Shown here: in pieces, positions 7,986-31,537 of the stretch
Layout: each line of letters begins with the position of its first letter
Position numbering within the stretch: the first letter of the stretch is position 1
Origin: Thermincola sp.
GTDB taxonomy: Bacteria; Bacillota; Thermincolia; Thermincolales; UBA2595
Direction of reading: 5' to 3'
Assembly: GCA_032027005.1 (NCBI GenBank)
Contig: JAVSMW010000015.1
Span: 10,354 to 42,353 of the forward strand
Length of the DNA stretch: 32,000 nt
Made by a program: the position numbers and the translations under genes
The notes under the pieces: model-generated
Seen by the model: the letters and a program-made list of their open reading frames with translations, nothing else
What the model was told of the DNA's origin: nothing
Database searches by the model: none

Positions 7986-8282
7986 ATGTTTGTGGCATAT
8001 TTGCTGTACGGGGTAGGCGGGCTTATACTGTTATATGCAATTGTCATGCCCTTGGTAATGAAGAAAAGGAATATTGAAAAAGCCGAAATAGCCGTGGTCA
8101 GACGGTATTATTATTCGATATGGATACTGGGGATGGCCTTTGTTGCGGACTTCATGGACAAGACTATACTCAAGCAGCTTGGAGCAAATAAATTAGGCTT
8201 TAACGAGACAGTATGGTTTATTATTATAATGTTCCAAAAGACATTAACTATCTTATCGTCCCATATAACAGCTCCCTCGTAG
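7986..8282 (+). CDS. Hypothetical small membrane protein (98 aa)
   Basis: ATG 7986 is preceded by GGAAGGGGG. Hydrophobic segments include FVAYLLYGVGGLILLYAIVMPLV and YYYSIWILGMAFVADF. I recognise no homolog. Confidence 0.45.
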   Translation: MFVAYLLYGVGGLILLYAIVMPLVMKKRNIEKAEIAVVRRYYYSIWILGMAFVADFMDKTILKQLGANKLGFNETVWFIIIMFQKTLTILSSHITAPS

Positions 8283-8395
8283 AGGACCAATTCTATGTAA
8301 TAATGTCCACCAAAAACGACCTTTACAACGTAGAACACGTTATGGTGCTTATGCTGCTACAGGCGTTTGAAGTCCAGATTTTATGAGATTAGGCA

Positions 8396-10877: not shown

Positions 10878-12227
10878 ATGAATAAATTGAAGTGGTTATA
10901 CCCTGGTATGAGGGTTAAAAGGTGGATGGTTCTGTCGGTTCTGGGCGCAATGTTCTTTGGAGCAGGTTTTATCCTGATCACAAATGTCGGGGCCTTTAGA
11001 ATCCTTAGCTACCTTTATTACCAAAGCTTTGACCCGGACGGTGCCGGCTCGCCGGTTGGTCCCGGAATTGTGGTCCTGGCAGTAGGTTTGGTGATGATTA
11101 TCATTGGTATTCGGAACACAATTTCTTCAATCATAAAGGCTTTAGCTCCGGAAAAACAGGGCGAAGTGGCCGAGTTTATTTATCAAAAACACTACCTGAG
11201 CCGTGGCCCAAAAGTTGTAGTTGTGGGAGGGGGAACGGGGCTTTCGGTTCTCCTCAGGGGGCTGAAAAAATTTACCAGCAATATTACTGCCATTGTCACA
11301 GTAGCAGATGACGGCGGCAGTTCAGGCAAACTGCGGAATGAATTTGGCATGCTGCCCCCCGGTGATATCAGGAACTGCCTGGTGGCCCTGGCGGATAAAG
11401 AAACCTTGATGGAAGACCTGTTTCAACACCGTTTTTCTATTGGCGAAGGTTTGAACGGCCATAGTATGGGTAACCTGCTGATTGCTGCCATGACCCAAAT
11501 CGCCGGTGATTTTGAAACAGCAATTCGTGAAATGAGTAAAGTCCTGGCTATCAGGGGACACGTTTTGCCTGCTACCCTTGACCAGTGCCGCCTTTGCGCT
11601 GAATTTGAGGGTGGCTTGGTGGTTGAAGGTGAGTCAGAGATAACCGAGGTAGGCAAGCGGATAAAAAAGCGGATTAACCGGGTATTCCTGAAGCCTGGAC
11701 ATTGTGAACCACTACCGGAGGCCTTGGCAGCCATTGCTGATGCTGATTTGATTGTTCTAGGCCCGGGCAGCCTTTATACCAGTATTATTCCTAACCTTTT
11801 GGTCAAAGGTATGGCTGAAGCTATAACCAAATCATCTGCCGCAACTGTTTATGTCTGCAATATTATGACCCAGCCCGGGGAAACTGACGGGTACAAAGCT
11901 TCCGAACATATCAGAGCAATTCGCGAACATGCCGGTTCCGGGCTGATAAATTTCGCTATTGTAAACGGTGAGGATATTCCCAAAACTCTGCAGCAAAAAT
12001 ATAGACAGGACGGAGCTGTGCCGGTTAGCCCTGATGTTAAGGAAATCGAAAAAATGAATATAAAACCTATAAAAAGAAACCTTGTTTTTGAAACAGATGT
12101 TGTCCGGCATGACCCTGAAAAACTCTCCGAAGCCATCATGGAACTTGCGGACCAGCTTAAATACGGTAGTGAGAAGTTTAATCTGCAGAGCTTATTCCTG
12201 GGGAAGCAAAGGATTAGGGAAATGTAA
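10878..12227 (+). CDS. yvcK: Gluconeogenesis factor YvcK (CofD-like, UPF0052) with an N-terminal ~110-aa two-TM extension
   Basis: The core begins at PKVVVVGGGTGLSVLLRGLK (about residue 113) and includes TVADDGGSSG and LGPGSLYTSIIPNLL. The N-terminus contains VLSVLGAMFFGAGFILITNVGAF and GIVVLAVGLVMIIIGI. Confidence 0.9.
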   Translation: MNKLKWLYPGMRVKRWMVLSVLGAMFFGAGFILITNVGAFRILSYLYYQSFDPDGAGSPVGPGIVVLAVGLVMIIIGIRNTISSIIKALAPEKQGEVAEFIYQKHYLSRGPKVVVVGGGTGLSVLLRGLKKFTSNITAIVTVADDGGSSGKLRNEFGMLPPGDIRNCLVALADKETLMEDLFQHRFSIGEGLNGHSMGNLLIAAMTQIAGDFETAIREMSKVLAIRGHVLPATLDQCRLCAEFEGGLVVEGESEITEVGKRIKKRINRVFLKPGHCEPLPEALAAIADADLIVLGPGSLYTSIIPNLLVKGMAEAITKSSAATVYVCNIMTQPGETDGYKASEHIRAIREHAGSGLINFAIVNGEDIPKTLQQKYRQDGAVPVSPDVKEIEKMNIKPIKRNLVFETDVVRHDPEKLSEAIMELADQLKYGSEKFNLQSLFLGKQRIREM

Positions 12228-23204: not shown

Positions 23205-25310
23205 ATGAATTTAAGTGATCCGACTAGTGCTTTGGCTTGGTTATCATTTGGCGCAGGTATCATTTCTCTTATCGTAGCGTTCTTATTCCTTGCCAATGTA
23301 CTAAAGCAAGACCCGGGTACTCCGAGAATGAAGGAATTATCCGACGCTATCTTTGAAGGGGCAATGGCATTTCTAAACCGCCAGTACAAATCTATGGCTC
23401 CGATTGTAGCTATCATTTTCATTATTCTTTTGGCTGTTGGCATGACAAACCCTGCCTTGTTAATGGAAGTAAAAGATGAGAGTATTGATTTGACAAGTAT
23501 GTCAACTAAACTGGCCCTGCCTATCTCATTCCTGGTAGGTGCAGTTGCATCAGCAATTGCCGGATACTGTGGGATGGTTAGTACAACTAAATCAAATGCC
23601 CGTACAACCCACGCTGCCCGTAAAGGTCTGCAAAGAGCCCTGACCATTGCCTTCCGCGGTGGTGCTGTTATGGGTCTGTCAGTTGCAGGTCTCGGTTTGG
23701 CCGGTGTATCAGGACTTTATTTATTGTTTGGAAATCCGGCAGTTATCAACAGTTTCGCCTTTGGAGCCAGCGCCGTAGCTCTGTTTGCGCGGATTGGCGG
23801 TGGTATTTATACCAAAGCTGCTGACGTAGGTGCTGACCTCGTTGGTAAAGTTGAAGCCGGAATCCCCGAAGATGACCCGCGGAACCCCGCTGTTATCGCT
23901 GACAACGTAGGTGATAACGTTGGTGACACCGCCGGTATGGGTGCTGACTTGTTTGAGTCCTATGCTGCAACTGCTATTGCTGCCATGGTTATTGGTAACA
24001 AGGTTCTTGGCATTGAGGGTGTACTTTTCCCACTGTTGATCGGTGCTATAGGTATTATCGCTTCTATCATCAGTACTGCTTTTGTACGTATGAGCAGCGA
24101 AGACTCCAACCCACAGACTGCATTGAATATGGGTCTGTATGGAACCAACATTCTCACAGCCATAGCAGGTTACTTCCTGGCGAAAGCTCTGTTTGGTGAT
24201 GTAGCCATGGGTATTTTCATCGGTATTGTTATGGGTCTTGTAACCAATATCGCTATTGGCTATATTACTGAGTTATATACTTCTTATAATTATCGTCCGG
24301 CTCAGGAAATTGCTGAGGCGTCCCAGACCGGTCCGGCCACTAACATCATCAAGGGTCTGGCTGTTGGTCTGAAGTCTACAGTTTATCCGGTGCTGGTTAT
24401 CGTTATAGCTATCTGGGTGTCTTATTTCTTTGCTGAAAATGCCGGAGAACACCTAGGAATCTATGGTATCGCCATGGCTGCCATGGGGATGCTCTCAACT
24501 GCAGGTATGGTTGTAGCCATCGACTCCTTCGGTCCGGTAGCTGACAACGCCGGTGGTATTGCTGAAATGGCAGAACTGGGACCGGAAGTTCGGAAGAACA
24601 CCGACCGCCTGGATGCTGTTGGTAACACAACTGCTGCAGTGGCCAAAGGTTTCGCTATCGGTTCTGCAGCTTTAACAGCTCTGGCTCTGTTTACCGCCTA
24701 TGCTGAGTCTGCAGGTTTAGCTGAAGCAGGCATCAACATTCTGGAGCCCATTGTTATTATCGGTCTGTTTATCGGTGCAACTGTACCCTTCCTTGTAGCA
24801 TCATTTGCTATGGAGGCTGTTGGTAAAGCTGCTTTTGAAATGATTGACGAAGTACGCCGTCAGTTCCGTGAGATTCCCGGCCTGATGGAAGGTAAAGCCA
24901 AGCCCGACTATGCCCGCTGTGTTGACATCAGTACCCGGGCTGCTATCAAGCAAATGGTTGCTCCCGGTCTCGTGGCAATTGGTACCCCTGTAGTTGTTGG
25001 CTTCCTCCTGGGACCTCTGGCTCTCGGTGCTGTGCTGGCCGGTGGTACCGCTTCCGGTGTGTTACTGGCCCTCTTCATGGCTAACGCCGGTGGTGCCTGG
25101 GATAACGCTAAGAAATATATTGAGACCGGCAAATTAGGCGGCAAAGGCAGCGAAGTTCACAAAGCGGCAGTTACCGGTGACACCGTAGGTGACCCCTTCA
25201 AGGATACAGCCGGTCCTGCCATGAACCCGCTGATCAAGGTTATGGGGACTATCTCCCTGATCTTGGCTCCGATTGTGGCGAAGGTGTACTTGTTCAAAGA
25301 TCTGATCTAA
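23205..25310 (+). CDS. hppA: Membrane-integral ion-translocating pyrophosphatase, K+-dependent type
   Basis: [29 protein letters not shown] and [17 protein letters not shown] motifs. [10 protein letters not shown] has Ala rather than Lys at the position known to distinguish K+-dependent enzymes. Confidence 0.93.
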
Positions 25311-25313
25311 TTT

Positions 25314-25360
25314 GCAAATAGATTGAGGGTGCAGAGGAATCTGCACCCTCAATTATTTGC
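25314..25360. terminator. Long hairpin after hppA, potentially a bidirectional terminator
   Basis: 20-bp stem with one bulge. The GC-rich upper part is attgagggtgcag (25322-25334) / ctgcaccctcaat (25341-25353). The A/T-rich lower stem can act as a U-tract on either strand. Confidence 0.75.
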
Positions 25361-25380
25361 GATGCATGCTATGTGCATGC

Positions 25381-25494
25381 AGGTGAAAATGCCCTCTGGC
25401 TTCGTTGCGCTGGCCGACCCAATCCTCAACGTACAACTAGTACGCCTCCGGTTGGGTCGGCCAGTGCGCCTTGCCAGAGGGCATTTTCACACCT
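25381..25494 (-). repeat. Conserved-apex long hairpin, copy 1 (candidate structured RNA; strand inferred from G-U pairs)
   Basis: Arms: 17-bp perfect gtgaaaatgccctctgg / ccagagggcattttcac, plus 16-bp gcgctggccgacccaa / ttgggtcggccag(tg)cgc. The apex 25421-25453 is the reverse complement of the apex of copy 2 (31101-31135). Confidence 0.8.
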
Positions 25495-25552
25495 CTGGGT
25501 CGGAAATTTGGCCAATAATATTTATGCAAGATTCTTTGGTAACTCAGCTAAA

Positions 25553-25872
25553 TTTTTGCTTACCAGTGAATCCGAGCAGTTATTACCGTTTGCGGAAGTT
25601 TCCCTTGGGCGGCATCGTTATGAATCTTGCTGTAAAGCGGAGAGCAGCAAGCCGGGGAGTCCCCGTATGTCCGCAGACGGCGAAGGCCGCCGGGAAGTTT
25701 CGCTGGCTATAATCGCGAAATGGGAGGCGGCCCTCTCATAAGGAATGCATTCTGAGCCGTCAAGTTCGGGGACGCCGGCTTGCTGCCGGAGCTTTACAGC
25801 TAGATGAATAGATGCCGCCCTAGGAAACTGGAGCAAACGGTAATACCTGCGGTGGATTATGGTGAGCAGAAA
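25553..25872 (+). ncRNA. Candidate large structured RNA: ~320-nt rod-like imperfect hairpin with a multi-hairpin apex (unclassified)
   Basis: Perfect helices: 13 bp (25581-25593/25833-25845), 7 bp (25597-25603/25823-25829), 10 bp (25607-25616/25811-25820), 10 bp (25629-25638/25791-25800), 12 bp (25644-25655/25775-25786), 6 bp (25660-25665/25767-25772). They are separated by small internal loops. The 101-nt apex holds at least 3 local hairpins. Confidence 0.45.
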
Positions 25873-25908
25873 ATTGAGGGAAGCTAAGAATAATCTTAAG
25901 CCCAACAC

Positions 25909-25937
25909 TTGCTTTCAACAAACTGCCGGGTTATAAT
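25909..25937 (+). promoter_or_regulatory. Sigma-A promoter of the GntR/YtrA-like operon
   Basis: TTGCTT (25909-25914), 17-nt spacer, TATAAT (25932-25937). Confidence 0.6.
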
Positions 25938-25950
25938 ATAAGTGTATTAG

Positions 25951-25962
25951 TGTACTAGTACA
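25951..25962. promoter_or_regulatory. Perfect 12-bp palindrome, likely autoregulatory operator
   Basis: TGTACTAGTACA lies just downstream of the -10 box, preceded by a GTGTA half-site (25942-25946). The position is typical for a GntR/YtrA operator. Confidence 0.5.
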
Positions 25963-25981
25963 GCATGAGGAGGCGGAGCAG

Positions 25982-26371
25982 TTGTGGTTTCATGTTGATC
26001 CCTCAAGTGGAGTGCCGATATATTTACAGATACTTAACCAGGTGAAACGAGCGGCTGCTTCAGGCATGCTCAAACCCGGAGACCAGATGCCTTCGGTGCG
26101 GGAACTGGCTACTGAACTCACCGTAAACCCCAATACCATTGCCAAAGCTTATCGGGAACTGGAACGCGACGGGGTGATTAAGACAGTACGCGGTGTAGGC
26201 ACCTTCGTGGCTGAAACAGAAGTTAAAATTGTCCATGAGGAACGGGTCAAGGTTATTTATAATGCCATTGACAAAGTACTTGTCGAAGCCCATTACCTGG
26301 GATTTAACGAAAATGAGGTCAGACAGTTTATAGATGATCGCATCAGGGAATGGAAGGAGAGGAAAAAGTGA
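25982..26371 (+). CDS. GntR-family transcriptional regulator, YtrA subfamily
   Basis: IYLQILNQVKRAAASGMLKPGDQMPSVRELATELTVNPNTIAKAYRELERDGVI is a GntR wHTH, and the short C-terminal helical domain is typical of YtrA. TTG start lies 8 nt after GAGGAGG. Confidence 0.85.
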   Translation: MWFHVDPSSGVPIYLQILNQVKRAAASGMLKPGDQMPSVRELATELTVNPNTIAKAYRELERDGVIKTVRGVGTFVAETEVKIVHEERVKVIYNAIDKVLVEAHYLGFNENEVRQFIDDRIREWKERKK

Positions 26372-26529
26372 TGATGGAAATTGCTATAAAAACCAGCGAG
26401 TTAACCAAAAGCTATGCCGTCATTCAGGCTATTAATGGTCTGAATCTGCAGGTTAACAAGGGAAGTATATACGGTTTCCTGGGCCGGAATGGGGCAGGCA
26501 AAACTACTACTATCGGTAATGTTGTTTGA
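26371..26529 (+). pseudogene. ABC transporter ATP-binding protein, N-terminal 52-aa fragment ending just after Walker A
   Basis: My translation is MMEIAIKTSELTKSYAVIQAINGLNLQVNKGSIYGFLGRNGAGKTTTIGNVV followed by TGA at 26527-26529. The start overlaps the regulator stop. Q-loop, signature and Walker B are all absent. Confidence 0.75.
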
Positions 26530-26535
26530 GAAAAA

Positions 26536-26751
26536 ATGAAAAGTGCGTTAGCTTCCATCTTTACCGTGTTTTTGCTGCAAATATCATCTTGGCTGCCGTT
26601 CTCAAAAAAATTCTCAATTTTTTATCATATGTCAGGGCCGGGGATTTATTCCGGACATGGCTTCCCGTATATAACCCTGGTGGTTTTGGCAGCAATATCG
26701 GCACCACTTTACTATCTTGGCAGAACGAGATTTGTGAGCAGGGACTTTTAA
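26536..26751 (+). pseudogene. Probable C-terminal remnant of the cognate ABC-2 type permease
   Basis: Same reading frame as the ATPase fragment. Hydrophobic ALASIFTVFLLQISSWL and YITLVVLAAISAPLYYL end in a basic/acidic tail (GRTRFVSRDF), as in ABC-2 permease C-termini. No RBS. Confidence 0.4.
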
Positions 26752-26810
26752 AACCATGGCTGGAATGGAAGAGTCAGGTTTGTTTACCGTTAATGAAAAG
26801 GAGGGGCATT

Positions 26811-27692
26811 ATGACAATCTATAAACCGACACCAGGTAAAGGATTTTTTTGGAGCGTTATTTTTATGATATTTGTGACCGGTGCTGTGGCTGCGCCTCTG
26901 ATAATCAGTACAGTCAGCGGCACGCCGCGGCTGGAGTTCCAGCTTATCATGGGTGGGGTCCTGGTATTGGTCCTGGGGATTTTTGGATATCTGGCCTGGA
27001 CGGCAAAAAATCTCACGTATGAGATTAATAAGGAAAACATGACAATTAAATGGGCTTTTAACAGGAAGACTATACCACTGACCAGTATCAAAGGCATTAA
27101 CCGGGTGGTTGGCAATAGTGCCACCAAAGTAGTAGGGGCCAGTCTGCCGGGTTTGCATATCGGGTCCTTCACCAGTCCAACGGGAAAAGGCTCAATAAAT
27201 CTTTTTGCCACCAGGCTATGGGGAGAAATCCTGCTTATCCGGACCAAATGGGAATTAATCGGAATTACCCCGGAAAACCCCGAAGAGTACCTGGAAGAAT
27301 TGTCTGCCAAAGTACCAGGCCTTAACTCTGACGGCCTGGCCGGTTTAGATCATAATCCCGCACCTTTTTCGCCCTGGCAGGCAAAACACTTCCTGGCCGT
27401 GATGGGCTTAACGGCAGCGACCATAATTGGTACAGGAATATACCTCTTGAAAACTATTCCAGCCCTGCCGGCAAAAATCCCAATGCACTATGATTTTTAC
27501 GGTCAGGTCAACCGCTATGGCTCTCCCAGTGAATTATGGGTAATTTATGGGATTGGGGTTGGCATAGTGGCTTTCATGATAATCCTCATGAGCACAGTTG
27601 TCAGAAACAACCGGACATCAGCATATTTGATGGCTTATACGTCGCTATTCATTGCCATCTTGTTTTCGGTAATCAGTATAGCTATTGGATAA
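26811..27692 (+). CDS. Membrane protein with a bacterial PH-like domain and a C-terminal DUF1648/SdpI-like region
   Basis: ATG 26811 follows AAAGGAGGGG. Two TM helices are followed by YEINKENMTIKWAFNRKTIPLTSIKGI (bPH-like). The C-terminal IPMHYDFYGQVNRYGS plus TM helices resembles DUF1648. Confidence 0.6.
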   Translation: MTIYKPTPGKGFFWSVIFMIFVTGAVAAPLIISTVSGTPRLEFQLIMGGVLVLVLGIFGYLAWTAKNLTYEINKENMTIKWAFNRKTIPLTSIKGINRVVGNSATKVVGASLPGLHIGSFTSPTGKGSINLFATRLWGEILLIRTKWELIGITPENPEEYLEELSAKVPGLNSDGLAGLDHNPAPFSPWQAKHFLAVMGLTAATIIGTGIYLLKTIPALPAKIPMHYDFYGQVNRYGSPSELWVIYGIGVGIVAFMIILMSTVVRNNRTSAYLMAYTSLFIAILFSVISIAIG

Positions 27693-31009: not shown

Positions 31010-31058
31010 CTCTGAGAATGATGAATGACTTTCATTCTTACTTTAAAAGTTTTTGCTA

Positions 31059-31179
31059 GGCTGTTCAAAAGCGAGCATAGCTAGGAGCCATTTGTGTCGG
31101 AACCGGAGGCGTACTGGGTATGTACGTCGAGGATTACGGCACAAATGGCGACAACGCTAGGCGACGCTTTTCAACAGCC
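31059..31179 (+). repeat. Conserved-apex long hairpin, copy 2, between smpB and ssrA
   Basis: Outer stem 31059-31073 / 31165-31179 (14 of 15 bp). Inner stem 31087-31096 / 31140-31149 (10 bp perfect). Apex 31101-31135 is aaccggaggcgtactgggtatgtacgtcgaggatt. It ends 8 nt before the tmRNA 5' end. Confidence 0.8.
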
Positions 31180-31187
31180 GTAAACAT

Positions 31188-31537
31188 GGGGGTGTAATGG
31201 TTTCGACGGGGGAAGAATAAACACAATAAGCGAGCCGGGATCCCACAGGCCCGTTAAACAGTGGAACTTAAATTAAACGCTAAAAACGATTTAGCTTACG
31301 CAGCTTAATTGCTGCTCACCTCTCTGCTTCTGTGCTCTGTGTGAGGCAGATGAGGTCATTTAACAGAGCTGGCTGACCCCCAATTCTCGGAGGGGTGACG
31401 CGAGATTTATCGAGATAGTGAGCCGGTAGCCTGTCGGTAGGCGATTGGTGAGCGAAATTTAAAATACTCGACTACGCTCGTAGAAGGTTGTGTGGGTTCT
31501 CTTTCGGACGCGGGTTCGACACCCGCCACCTCCACCA
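31188..31537 (+). ncRNA. ssrA: tmRNA (SsrA)
   Basis: 5' GGGGGUGUAAUGGUUUCGACGGGG and 3' GGACGCGGGUUCGACACCCGCCACCUCCACCA. The acceptor stem GGGGGUG/CACCUCC has the G3-U wobble. Tag reading frame 31279-31308: gct aaa aac gat tta gct tac gca gct taa = AKNDLAYAA. Confidence 0.93.

Follow-up and report, generated by a model that had tools for sequence, protein, structure and literature searches.

The window, the whole stretch of 32,000 nucleotides that was analysed, is a core-genome stretch in which cggR-gap-pgk-tpi-pgm-eno are followed by hppA (23205-25310; H_PPase, E = 1e-272). Beyond the intergenic region lie the gene for a GntR regulator (25982-26371), a decayed ABC cassette, secG, rnr, smpB and tmRNA (31188-31537). 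In this intergenic region the original prediction placed a long fold-back, from 25553 to 25872, and took it for a candidate large structured RNA in a gap free of credible open reading frames. We determined that this fold-back is a real hairpin whose base-pairing has been maintained by evolution. An inverted-repeat search recovered its arms at the predicted position (Table 1). The + strand of 25540-25890 (351 nt) folds at -183.3 kcal/mol, compared with -117.0 +/- 5.2 kcal/mol in dinucleotide shuffles (z = -12.7), and the - strand of the same segment reaches -175.7 kcal/mol (z = -16.3, dinucleotide-preserving shuffles). The inverted repeat extends beyond the limits first proposed, from ~25523 to ~25899, by way of degenerate outer arms, and the rod, as we call the hairpin here, comprises ~135 bp in total. 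The loops with the same sequence on both sides had been placed correctly, both GGA/GGA in its outer position and ATGAAT at 25620-25625 and 25804-25809; a third loop of this kind, GGA/GGA between helices 4 and 5, is near-invariant across the family described below, so that two GGA/GGA loops are conserved in it. The three mechanical open reading frames of the gap (96-129 aa) gave no Pfam match.

Table 1. Features of the intergenic region between hppA and the GntR regulator gene (window coordinates).
Feature	Coordinates	Strand	Partner, remarks and basis
hppA terminator hairpin	25322..25353	+	Upstream limit of the ~540-bp inserted block; basis, L092, L089 and L090, which are without the block
108-nt hairpin (hp2)	25383..25490	-	Second, unrelated hairpin-repeat family; adjoins the rod in the window and in L085; not part of the rod
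5' outer arm	25523..25569	+	Degenerate subfamily-A arm (consensus GATACTGCAAGATTATTGGGTAAC...); imperfect pairing with 25857-25899; fold and 16-copy flank comparison
Conserved core	25570..25856	+	~283 nt, unbranched rod, nine helices; nhmmer/BLAST, alignment A2, consensus fold, covariation
Helix 1, 5' strand	25576..25593	+	Partner 25833-25850; compensated double changes at 13/18 pairs in the family
G(G/A)A internal loop	25594..25596	+	Faces G(G/A)A 25830-25832; non-complementary in most copies
Helices 2-4, 5' strands	25597..25638	+	Covariation, consensus fold
Helix 2	25597-25602	+	With 25824-25829
Helix 3	25607-25616	+	With 25811-25820
Helix 4	25620-25638	+	With 25791-25809
GGA internal loop	25639..25641	+	Faces GGA 25788-25790; kept in 12/13 and 13/13 copies
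Helices 5 and 6 (P2), 5' strands	25642..25668	+	Partners 25773-25787 and 25764-25771
Joining segment GUCCGCA	25669..25675	+	Purine- and C-rich, unpaired, conserved; faces AAGUU ~25762-25766
Apical domain	25676..25761	+	P3, P4, P5, terminal loop and 3' linker
P3	25676-25681	+	GACGGC with GCCGTC 25756-25761
P4	25685-25691	+	GGCCGCC with GGCGGCC 25726-25732; C-G to U-A covariation in L085 and L123
P5	25697-25703	+	GTTTCGC with GCGAAAT 25715-25721; covariation in L106
Terminal loop	25704-25714	+	Variable, 11 nt
3' linker	25733-25755	+	Variable, 23 nt
3' outer arm	25857..25899	+	...AATAATCTTAA; degenerate partner of 25523-25569
Inverted-repeat arms, outermost pair found	25576-25603/25823-25850		Inverted-repeat search
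Inverted-repeat arms, second pair	25600-25616/25811-25827		Inverted-repeat search
Inverted-repeat arms, third pair	25619-25638/25791-25810		Inverted-repeat search
Inverted-repeat arms, fourth pair	25644-25655/25775-25786		12 bp, perfect; inverted-repeat search
Inverted-repeat arms, innermost pair	25656-25665/25767-25776		Inverted-repeat search

We show that the rod is not a unique RNA gene but one copy of an undescribed dispersed family of ~290-380-nt hairpin repeats in a Thermincola-like lineage, present at many loci and differing in presence between close relatives. The core recurs at a minimum of 16 unrelated chromosomal loci in related subsurface metagenomes, with 78-91% identity. Further copies (on contigs given here by L numbers) were reached by a search with the translation of a spurious open reading frame of the rod, which led to a 111-aa 'protein' on contigs L096-L101. 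There a rod copy, 83% identical over 329 nt, lies in an unrelated context, between a LysM/PQQ-dehydrogenase gene and a DUF6504/DnaE2-type cassette, with no small hairpin beside it. A metagenome scan with a 19-mer invariant in the first three copies returned 27 contigs, about 21 of which carry true copies (81-89% identity); three JGI data sets and one WGS set supplied nearly all of these. After removal of duplicates there remained at least 16 genomic contexts, one tandem pair (L114), one fragment (L125) and one apical variant (L121). The copies lie in intergenic regions, and the genes on either side are ordinary chromosomal ones (LeuRS, SpoIIE, FtsW/RodA, MotB, release factor, Lgt, LspA, YlbF, histidine kinase and others), and no transposase, reverse transcriptase, integrase or phage gene was found among them. 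Profile nhmmer searches over 1.03 Mb of collected sequence revealed no divergent copies in Phosphitispora, at other Thermincola-like loci or in the rest of the window, and in the same 1.03 Mb the outer-arm motif occurs only at rod copies.

Short-read contigs start or end inside rod copies in L003/L004 (the window's own samples, start 25778), L086, L104, L114 and L127, and such breaks are the usual signature of a repeat. Gene callers also yield spurious proteins from the rod; one of 77 aa is called in L002, and P0121, of 111 aa, on seven contigs.

All copies have only the core ends GCAGGTATGACCG/CGGTCATACCTGC in common (in the window copy the core reads (A)TCAGAGCAGGTATGACCG ... CGGTCATACCTGCGG), and the outermost arms vary among the 16 copies. 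Outside the core three states were observed, namely A-type arms, heptamer arms or no extension. A-type arms (...CACC·GATACTGCAAGATTATTGGGTAAC... and its complement) bring the hairpin to ~380-400 nt; the version of the window copy is degenerate, with a fuzzy match, TATGCAAGATTCTTTGGTAA, to the subfamily-A arm at 25523-25542. Heptamer arms consist of (GTGGNTA)n runs, inverted on the two sides, which lengthen the hairpin with unrelated sequence; they were seen on both sides in L102 (790-860 and 1147-1200) and L115 (1370-1430 and 1715-1760), and on the 5' side only in L119 (1250-1330). In the variant copy of L121 (655-1066, - strand) the rod stems and the GAGTCCCCG/CGGGGAC helix are kept and the ~85-nt apical domain is swapped for a different domain of ~260 nt with its own perfect hairpin (GATGCCGTTATCGCTTCAGCGATTACGGCATC).

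At the hppA locus the rod is part of an inserted block of ~540 bp that consists of the small hairpin, a spacer and the rod. Four further assemblies with the same GntR protein are 100% identical across the region and for this reason add no comparative information. L085, from a rock-porewater metagenome and with hppA 94% identical, has both the 108-nt hairpin and the rod, at ~80% DNA identity, but carries the rod without the GntR cassette. In L092, whose hppA is likewise 94% identical, the hppA terminator runs straight to the GntR promoter and there is no rod. Both the small hairpin and the rod are also absent from L087, L088, L093 and L094 (hppA 90-92%) and from L089-L091 (84-85%, including Phosphitispora). 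Among the matches listed in a genome-collection scan with hppA, relatives appeared only at 65% identity or less. A clean empty site was not recovered from the hppA-locus relatives or at the LysM locus, and no direct repeat that could represent a target-site duplication was visible at the ends of the 16 copies. In the LysM-locus relative L129/L130 the rod is absent and the adjacent small gene is inverted, so that this locus gives no clean junction or target-duplication information. An IS110-family transposase gene (DEDD_Tnp_IS110 and Transposase_20; L129 15525-16808) lies ~6 kb from that locus, with no link to the rod seen.

The T tract behind the terminator of hppA is weak (TATTTG) in the window (25322-25360) and in L085, both of which have the block, and long and strong in the block-free L092 (5128-5175). 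The weak tract in the block carriers is consistent with read-through into the elements. On the other side of the rod two sites follow immediately, within 25909-25962. These are the GntR-operon promoter (TTGCTT, 17 nt, TATAAT at 25932-25937) and a palindrome that resembles an operator, GTGTATTAGTGTACTAGTACA (25942-25962), the latter kept in L088, L092, L093 and L094. The GntR-linked ABC cassette is decayed in the window (26350-27692), with an ATPase fragment of 52-59 aa and the permease missing; in L092 and L094 the cassette genes are intact (299-302 aa and 251 aa).

To evaluate structural selection we aligned 15 cores (alignment A2), for which RNAalifold gave a consensus of 90 pairs in nine helices. 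At 25 of the 90 pairs we observed at least one compensated double change, compared with 10.0 +/- 2.0 in shuffles, and 95.4% of paired cells were compatible with pairing, compared with 92.5 +/- 0.3%; neither value was reached in any of 500 shuffles. When the 3' partners were slid by 1-3 columns, pairing fell to 30-40%. The covarying columns 65/232 and 70/227 show all four combinations and so reflect more than one event. Column identity is 88% at paired and 77% at unpaired positions, and the terminal loop and the 3' linker are the most variable parts. These results show that base-pairing in the rod is kept by compensatory substitutions and clearly support selection on the preserved fold; on this point the large structure of the original prediction is supported.

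At the shared locus, the core of the window copy and that of L085 are 86% identical, and 7 of the 14 pairs at which they differ are changed on both sides with full compensation. Fourfold-degenerate sites of the two genomes are 63% identical in hppA and 48% in eno, and no alignment was possible for the spacer that separates the rod from the small hairpin. At the same time, the family tree is star-like (pairwise 78-91%), and the window copy is 87% identical to its same-locus counterpart and up to 89% to copies at other loci. As it is no closer to L085 than to those, homogenisation or re-insertion is possible and the orthology-based argument for constraint is weakened.

Since template switching during replication can create and repair stems and mimic compensatory change (PMC8794818), the arms of a functionless DNA palindrome might be kept complementary by this route or by intra-palindrome repair, and the - strand too folds far better than shuffles. 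We regard this as very improbable. Template switching would make loops complementary, and the GGA/GGA and purine loops are non-complementary in nearly all copies; it would also act without strand preference, yet G·U pairs exceed A·C pairs and all 15 copies fold better on the + strand. Nor would it account for an orientation relative to genes that is non-random (8/8). It is these strand-specific features, together with the persistence of non-complementary loops, that disfavour a neutral origin.

The apex of the rod differs from what had been proposed. The consensus of the 15 cores is unbranched and tipped by the tttcgc/gcgaaa hairpin, instead of the branched apex of the original prediction. The four apex motifs named there are all present in the window sequence, and two of them are not conserved in the family: gggagg/cctctc is paired in only 67% of cells across copies and the GAATGCATTC palindrome in only 57%. 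The tttcgc/gcgaaa helix is the true tip, 96% paired and covarying in L106. The remaining motif, cggc/gccg, is compatible with every copy, and covariation instead backs the competing pairings GACGGC/GCCGTC and GGCCGCC/GGCGGCC. With two motifs unconserved and a third in competition with covarying helices, the branched apex is specific to the window copy or to its single-sequence fold. A pseudoknot between UGUCC of the joining segment and GGAUA of the linker was dropped, because the changes seen in the linker (GG, UU, UC, GA) have no correlated counterpart.

We also considered whether the apex encodes a peptide of 24 residues (MSADGEGRREVSLAIIAKWEAALS; ATG at 25667 to TAA at 25741) whose translation the hairpin regulates. 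An ATG with GGAG 7 nt upstream occurs in 14 of 15 copies, and the 24-codon frame in 9 of 15. Codon positions 1, 2 and 3 are equally variable (entropy 0.38, 0.32 and 0.38); the shortest frame has 14 codons and the longest 45, and in L102 the variable loop contains an in-frame stop. Homologous proteins were limited to spurious calls on the rod itself, and the peptide is hydrophilic, unlike type I toxins. With no coding signature and no excess of third-position variability we rejected the small-ORF reading, which we hold to be extremely improbable.

It is on the + strand, the sense strand with respect to the neighbouring genes, that the fold is preserved. Predicted minimum free energy is lower on the + strand in 15/15 copies, by 0.5-37 kcal/mol (Wilcoxon p = 6e-5), and the variable pairs contain 37 G·U but only 18 A·C (p = 0.014), which bears out the strand assignment made earlier from the window alone. 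GGA occurs 138 times on the + and 32 times on the - strand, GAG 115 and 7 times, and purines make up 68% of unpaired positions compared with 50% of helices. The rod lies in sense orientation at 8/8 loci with Pfam-verified co-directional neighbours (two-sided p ~0.008), and the verified upstream gene is co-directional with it in 9 of 12 loci.

Strand-specific pairing that tolerates G·T would also be expected if the selected fold were one of single-stranded DNA, adopted by a lagging-strand template or by a transposition or transfer intermediate and bound by a recombinase, transposase or priming enzyme. Single-stranded DNA hairpins of this kind are found at IS200/IS605 ends, integron attC sites and single-strand origins. 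Copies dispersed without target-site duplications resemble IS200/IS605-type elements. Firmicute genes are biased to the direction of replication, with which sense orientation correlates; for genes co-oriented with replication it is the lagging-strand template, and the orientation of the rods is therefore compatible with a single-stranded DNA form. Against this, the surroundings of the copies contain no HUH/Y1 transposase, TnpB, integrase or relaxase, there is no plasmid or phage similarity, known recognition hairpins are far smaller, and the outer arms, judged by eye, misfit the attC R''/R' consensus. Taken together, we consider a DNA-level function unlikely.

The rod matched no known RNA family, in agreement with the original prediction, which had recognised none (our comparison covered 6S, SRP, RNase P, tmRNA, OLE, ROOL, GOLLD, HEARO, raiA, self-cleaving ribozymes and other Rfam families). 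At the gathering score no Rfam family lies near the locus, and the sole hit in the window is tmRNA (31188-31537). At E <= 10 on 25300-26000 only chance matches appeared, none spanning the rod (for instance, the hppA terminator was hit by V_AS5 and the small hairpin by a plant miRNA model), and five other rod copies gave no hits at E <= 0.1. BLAST against plasmids and phages in distant mode gave no matches to the rod, and neither did scans of viral contigs with two apex patterns. OLE, ROOL, GOLLD, HEARO, raiA, 6S and large SRP RNA share with the rod a length of ~300 nt, extensive covariation and conserved unpaired purines, but none of their covariance models matched it even at E <= 10. Those RNAs, most of them multi-branched, either occur as single copies or accompany particular genes or prophages, whereas the rod is unbranched and occurs in many copies beside unrelated genes.

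The same strand-specific constraint could reflect a multi-copy family of independently transcribed RNA genes, each giving a trans-acting rod RNA of ~290 nt that binds protein, for example through its GGA/purine loops, or enters into an RNP. In favour of this, covariation is strong, and both the joining segments and the non-complementary purine loops are conserved. GGA is conserved at seven sites, most of which are unpaired, and shows a strong strand asymmetry. In most copies helix 1 is preceded, at a distance of 5-8 nt, by an A/T-rich box, and at the shared hppA locus the rod has diverged far less than synonymous sites have. No convincing + strand sigma-70-type promoter for the rod emerged from prediction or from inspection by eye, and no terminator or U tract was found after it. 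The two promoter-like sites near the rod, 25918 to 25890 and 25542 to 25515, belong to the - strand, and their frequency does not exceed that in shuffles. Copies that differ by 9-22% and are absent in close relatives would be unusual for an essential trans-acting RNA, outer arms and apex are modular between copies, and the enrichment of GGA over dinucleotide shuffles is modest (z from -0.1 to 2.7). A trans-acting RNA of this kind is a possible but doubtful explanation.

With respect to mobile repeats, the original prediction had named a match to an IS or MITE inverted-repeat structure as an outcome that would speak against it; the dispersal proper to repeats was found, but the databases gave no known IS or MITE as a match. 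Like MITEs, which are short (under ~600 bp) and non-coding, the rod measures 283 nt in its core and ~377 nt with arms, and its copies are dispersed over at least 16 contexts with insertion differences (absent in L092, L087-L091 and L129/L130). Target-site duplication, a defining feature of MITEs, was looked for at the 16 copies and not found, and no clean empty site was recovered. The family may be called MITE-like in the sense that its spread would imply mobility. Preservation of structure by compensatory change on one strand, which marks repeats of the bcr1/ERIC/Correia type, was found in the rod. Other classes were set aside. REP/BIME units are palindromes of 20-40 nt, and the rod unit has at least 283 nt. 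Integron attC sites measure 57-141 nt, compared with ~380 nt for the rod, whose neighbours are housekeeping genes with no integrase, and the arms GGGTAAC/GTTACCC have, by eye, purines where pyrimidines are required (RYYYAAC/GTTRRRY). IS200/IS605 palindrome-associated elements go with TnpA(Y1) or TnpB and have small subterminal hairpins; neither gene was found near any copy, and the structure is a single long rod. Retron msr/msd, 6S RNA and SRP RNA each failed to match in a defining feature.

Lineage-specific hairpin repeats are common. The explanation that we prefer, with a probability of roughly 0.5, is that the rod is such a lineage-specific, non-coding interspersed repeat, with a selected + strand fold, which spread in a MITE-like manner and would act in cis as RNA produced by read-through. 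The family would have spread as a non-autonomous mobile sequence, as its distribution suggests; we infer mobility from this distribution only, because no target-site duplication, clean empty site or transposase was found. The functional form would be RNA, made when transcription of the upstream gene reads into the rod, and in the window this gene would be hppA, with the weak T tract of its terminator. The sense orientation of the rod at the 8/8 co-directional loci would be in keeping with such read-through. The stable purine-looped rod may then act in cis on the host transcript, as a candidate 3'-end barrier to exonucleases, processing site or protein-binding site, by analogy with the mode of action proposed for bcr1, ERIC and Correia elements.

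Among these, bcr1 of the Bacillus cereus group (~155 bp) is, like the rod, a non-coding and dispersed intergenic repeat of Firmicutes, patchy among close relatives; it is mobile and transcribed, and its RNA secondary structure is maintained through compensatory base changes (PMC3184786). Unlike the rod, bcr1 is about half the size, folds into two hairpins that resemble a cruciform, and is bounded by direct repeats of 5 bp; the fold described here is a single rod of ~135 bp, and no target duplication was seen. The ERIC/IRU repeats of Enterobacteriaceae (~127 bp) and the ERIC-like repeats of Yersinia are imperfect palindromes that lie between genes in regions which are transcribed; as part of the transcript of the upstream gene, at its 3' end, ERIC and other repeats can alter mRNA stability (PMC3184786). 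Some ERIC/IRU copies have internal insertions, as L121 does in the rod family. They differ from the rod in phylum, in size (about a third) and in their TA-flanked termini. We know of no sequence relationship between the two. Correia/NEMIS elements of Neisseria (MITEs of 104-157 bp) are likewise multi-copy hairpin repeats in intergenic positions that differ between strains, and they are co-transcribed and act at the RNA level on mRNA fate (PMC3184786), which in the rod family is proposed only. Correia elements have 26-bp terminal inverted repeats and TA duplications, neither demonstrated in the rod family, and the rod is two to three times longer and has a conserved asymmetric apical domain.

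The length of 283-400 nt and the conserved asymmetric purine loops exceed what is typical of bacterial MITEs, which hints at a function more specific than 3'-end protection. The rods might represent a new class of large structured RNA that is at once mobile and functional, a reading that we regard as speculative and distinctly unlikely. In one form of it, a trans-acting RNA would sequester an RNA-binding regulator with its unpaired GGA/purine loops, in the manner of a CsrB/RsmZ-type sponge; to our knowledge, such sponges have not been described in Firmicutes. In the other form, the RNA fold would be needed for spread without any element-encoded protein. If true, either form would explain why the 135-bp rod, the non-complementary GGA/GGA loops and the joining segments are kept, as well as the apparent purifying selection at the resident locus.

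The rods make up a previously undescribed family of interspersed repeats with a defined structure, in a subsurface Firmicute lineage that is uncultured and little studied, with unusually clear evidence for strand-specific, structure-preserving selection. Such repeats fragment assemblies, give rise to spurious gene calls (77 and 111 aa) and can alter the expression of neighbouring genes. If the constraint at the RNA level reflects a host function, the family would offer a large and tractable case for why bacterial repeats keep RNA structure; otherwise the rod model serves the annotation and masking of these genomes.

The small hairpin beside the rod favours the opposite strand to it, as had been proposed, and belongs to a second family of its own. 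In addition to 25383-25490 (-), the window holds a copy at 31057-31180 (+); L085 has copies at 8165-8285 and 11940-12075, and others occur in L125 near 1126 and at the end of L095. No Rfam family matched. The preferred folding strand reads CCGGAGGCGUAC, and a conserved apical loop, CCGGAGGCGUACU.G.U.UGUACGUYGAGGAUU, sits on stems that are wholly different between copies and self-complementary. One copy lies downstream of hppA, and another ends 8 nt before the 5' end of mature tmRNA in both genomes.
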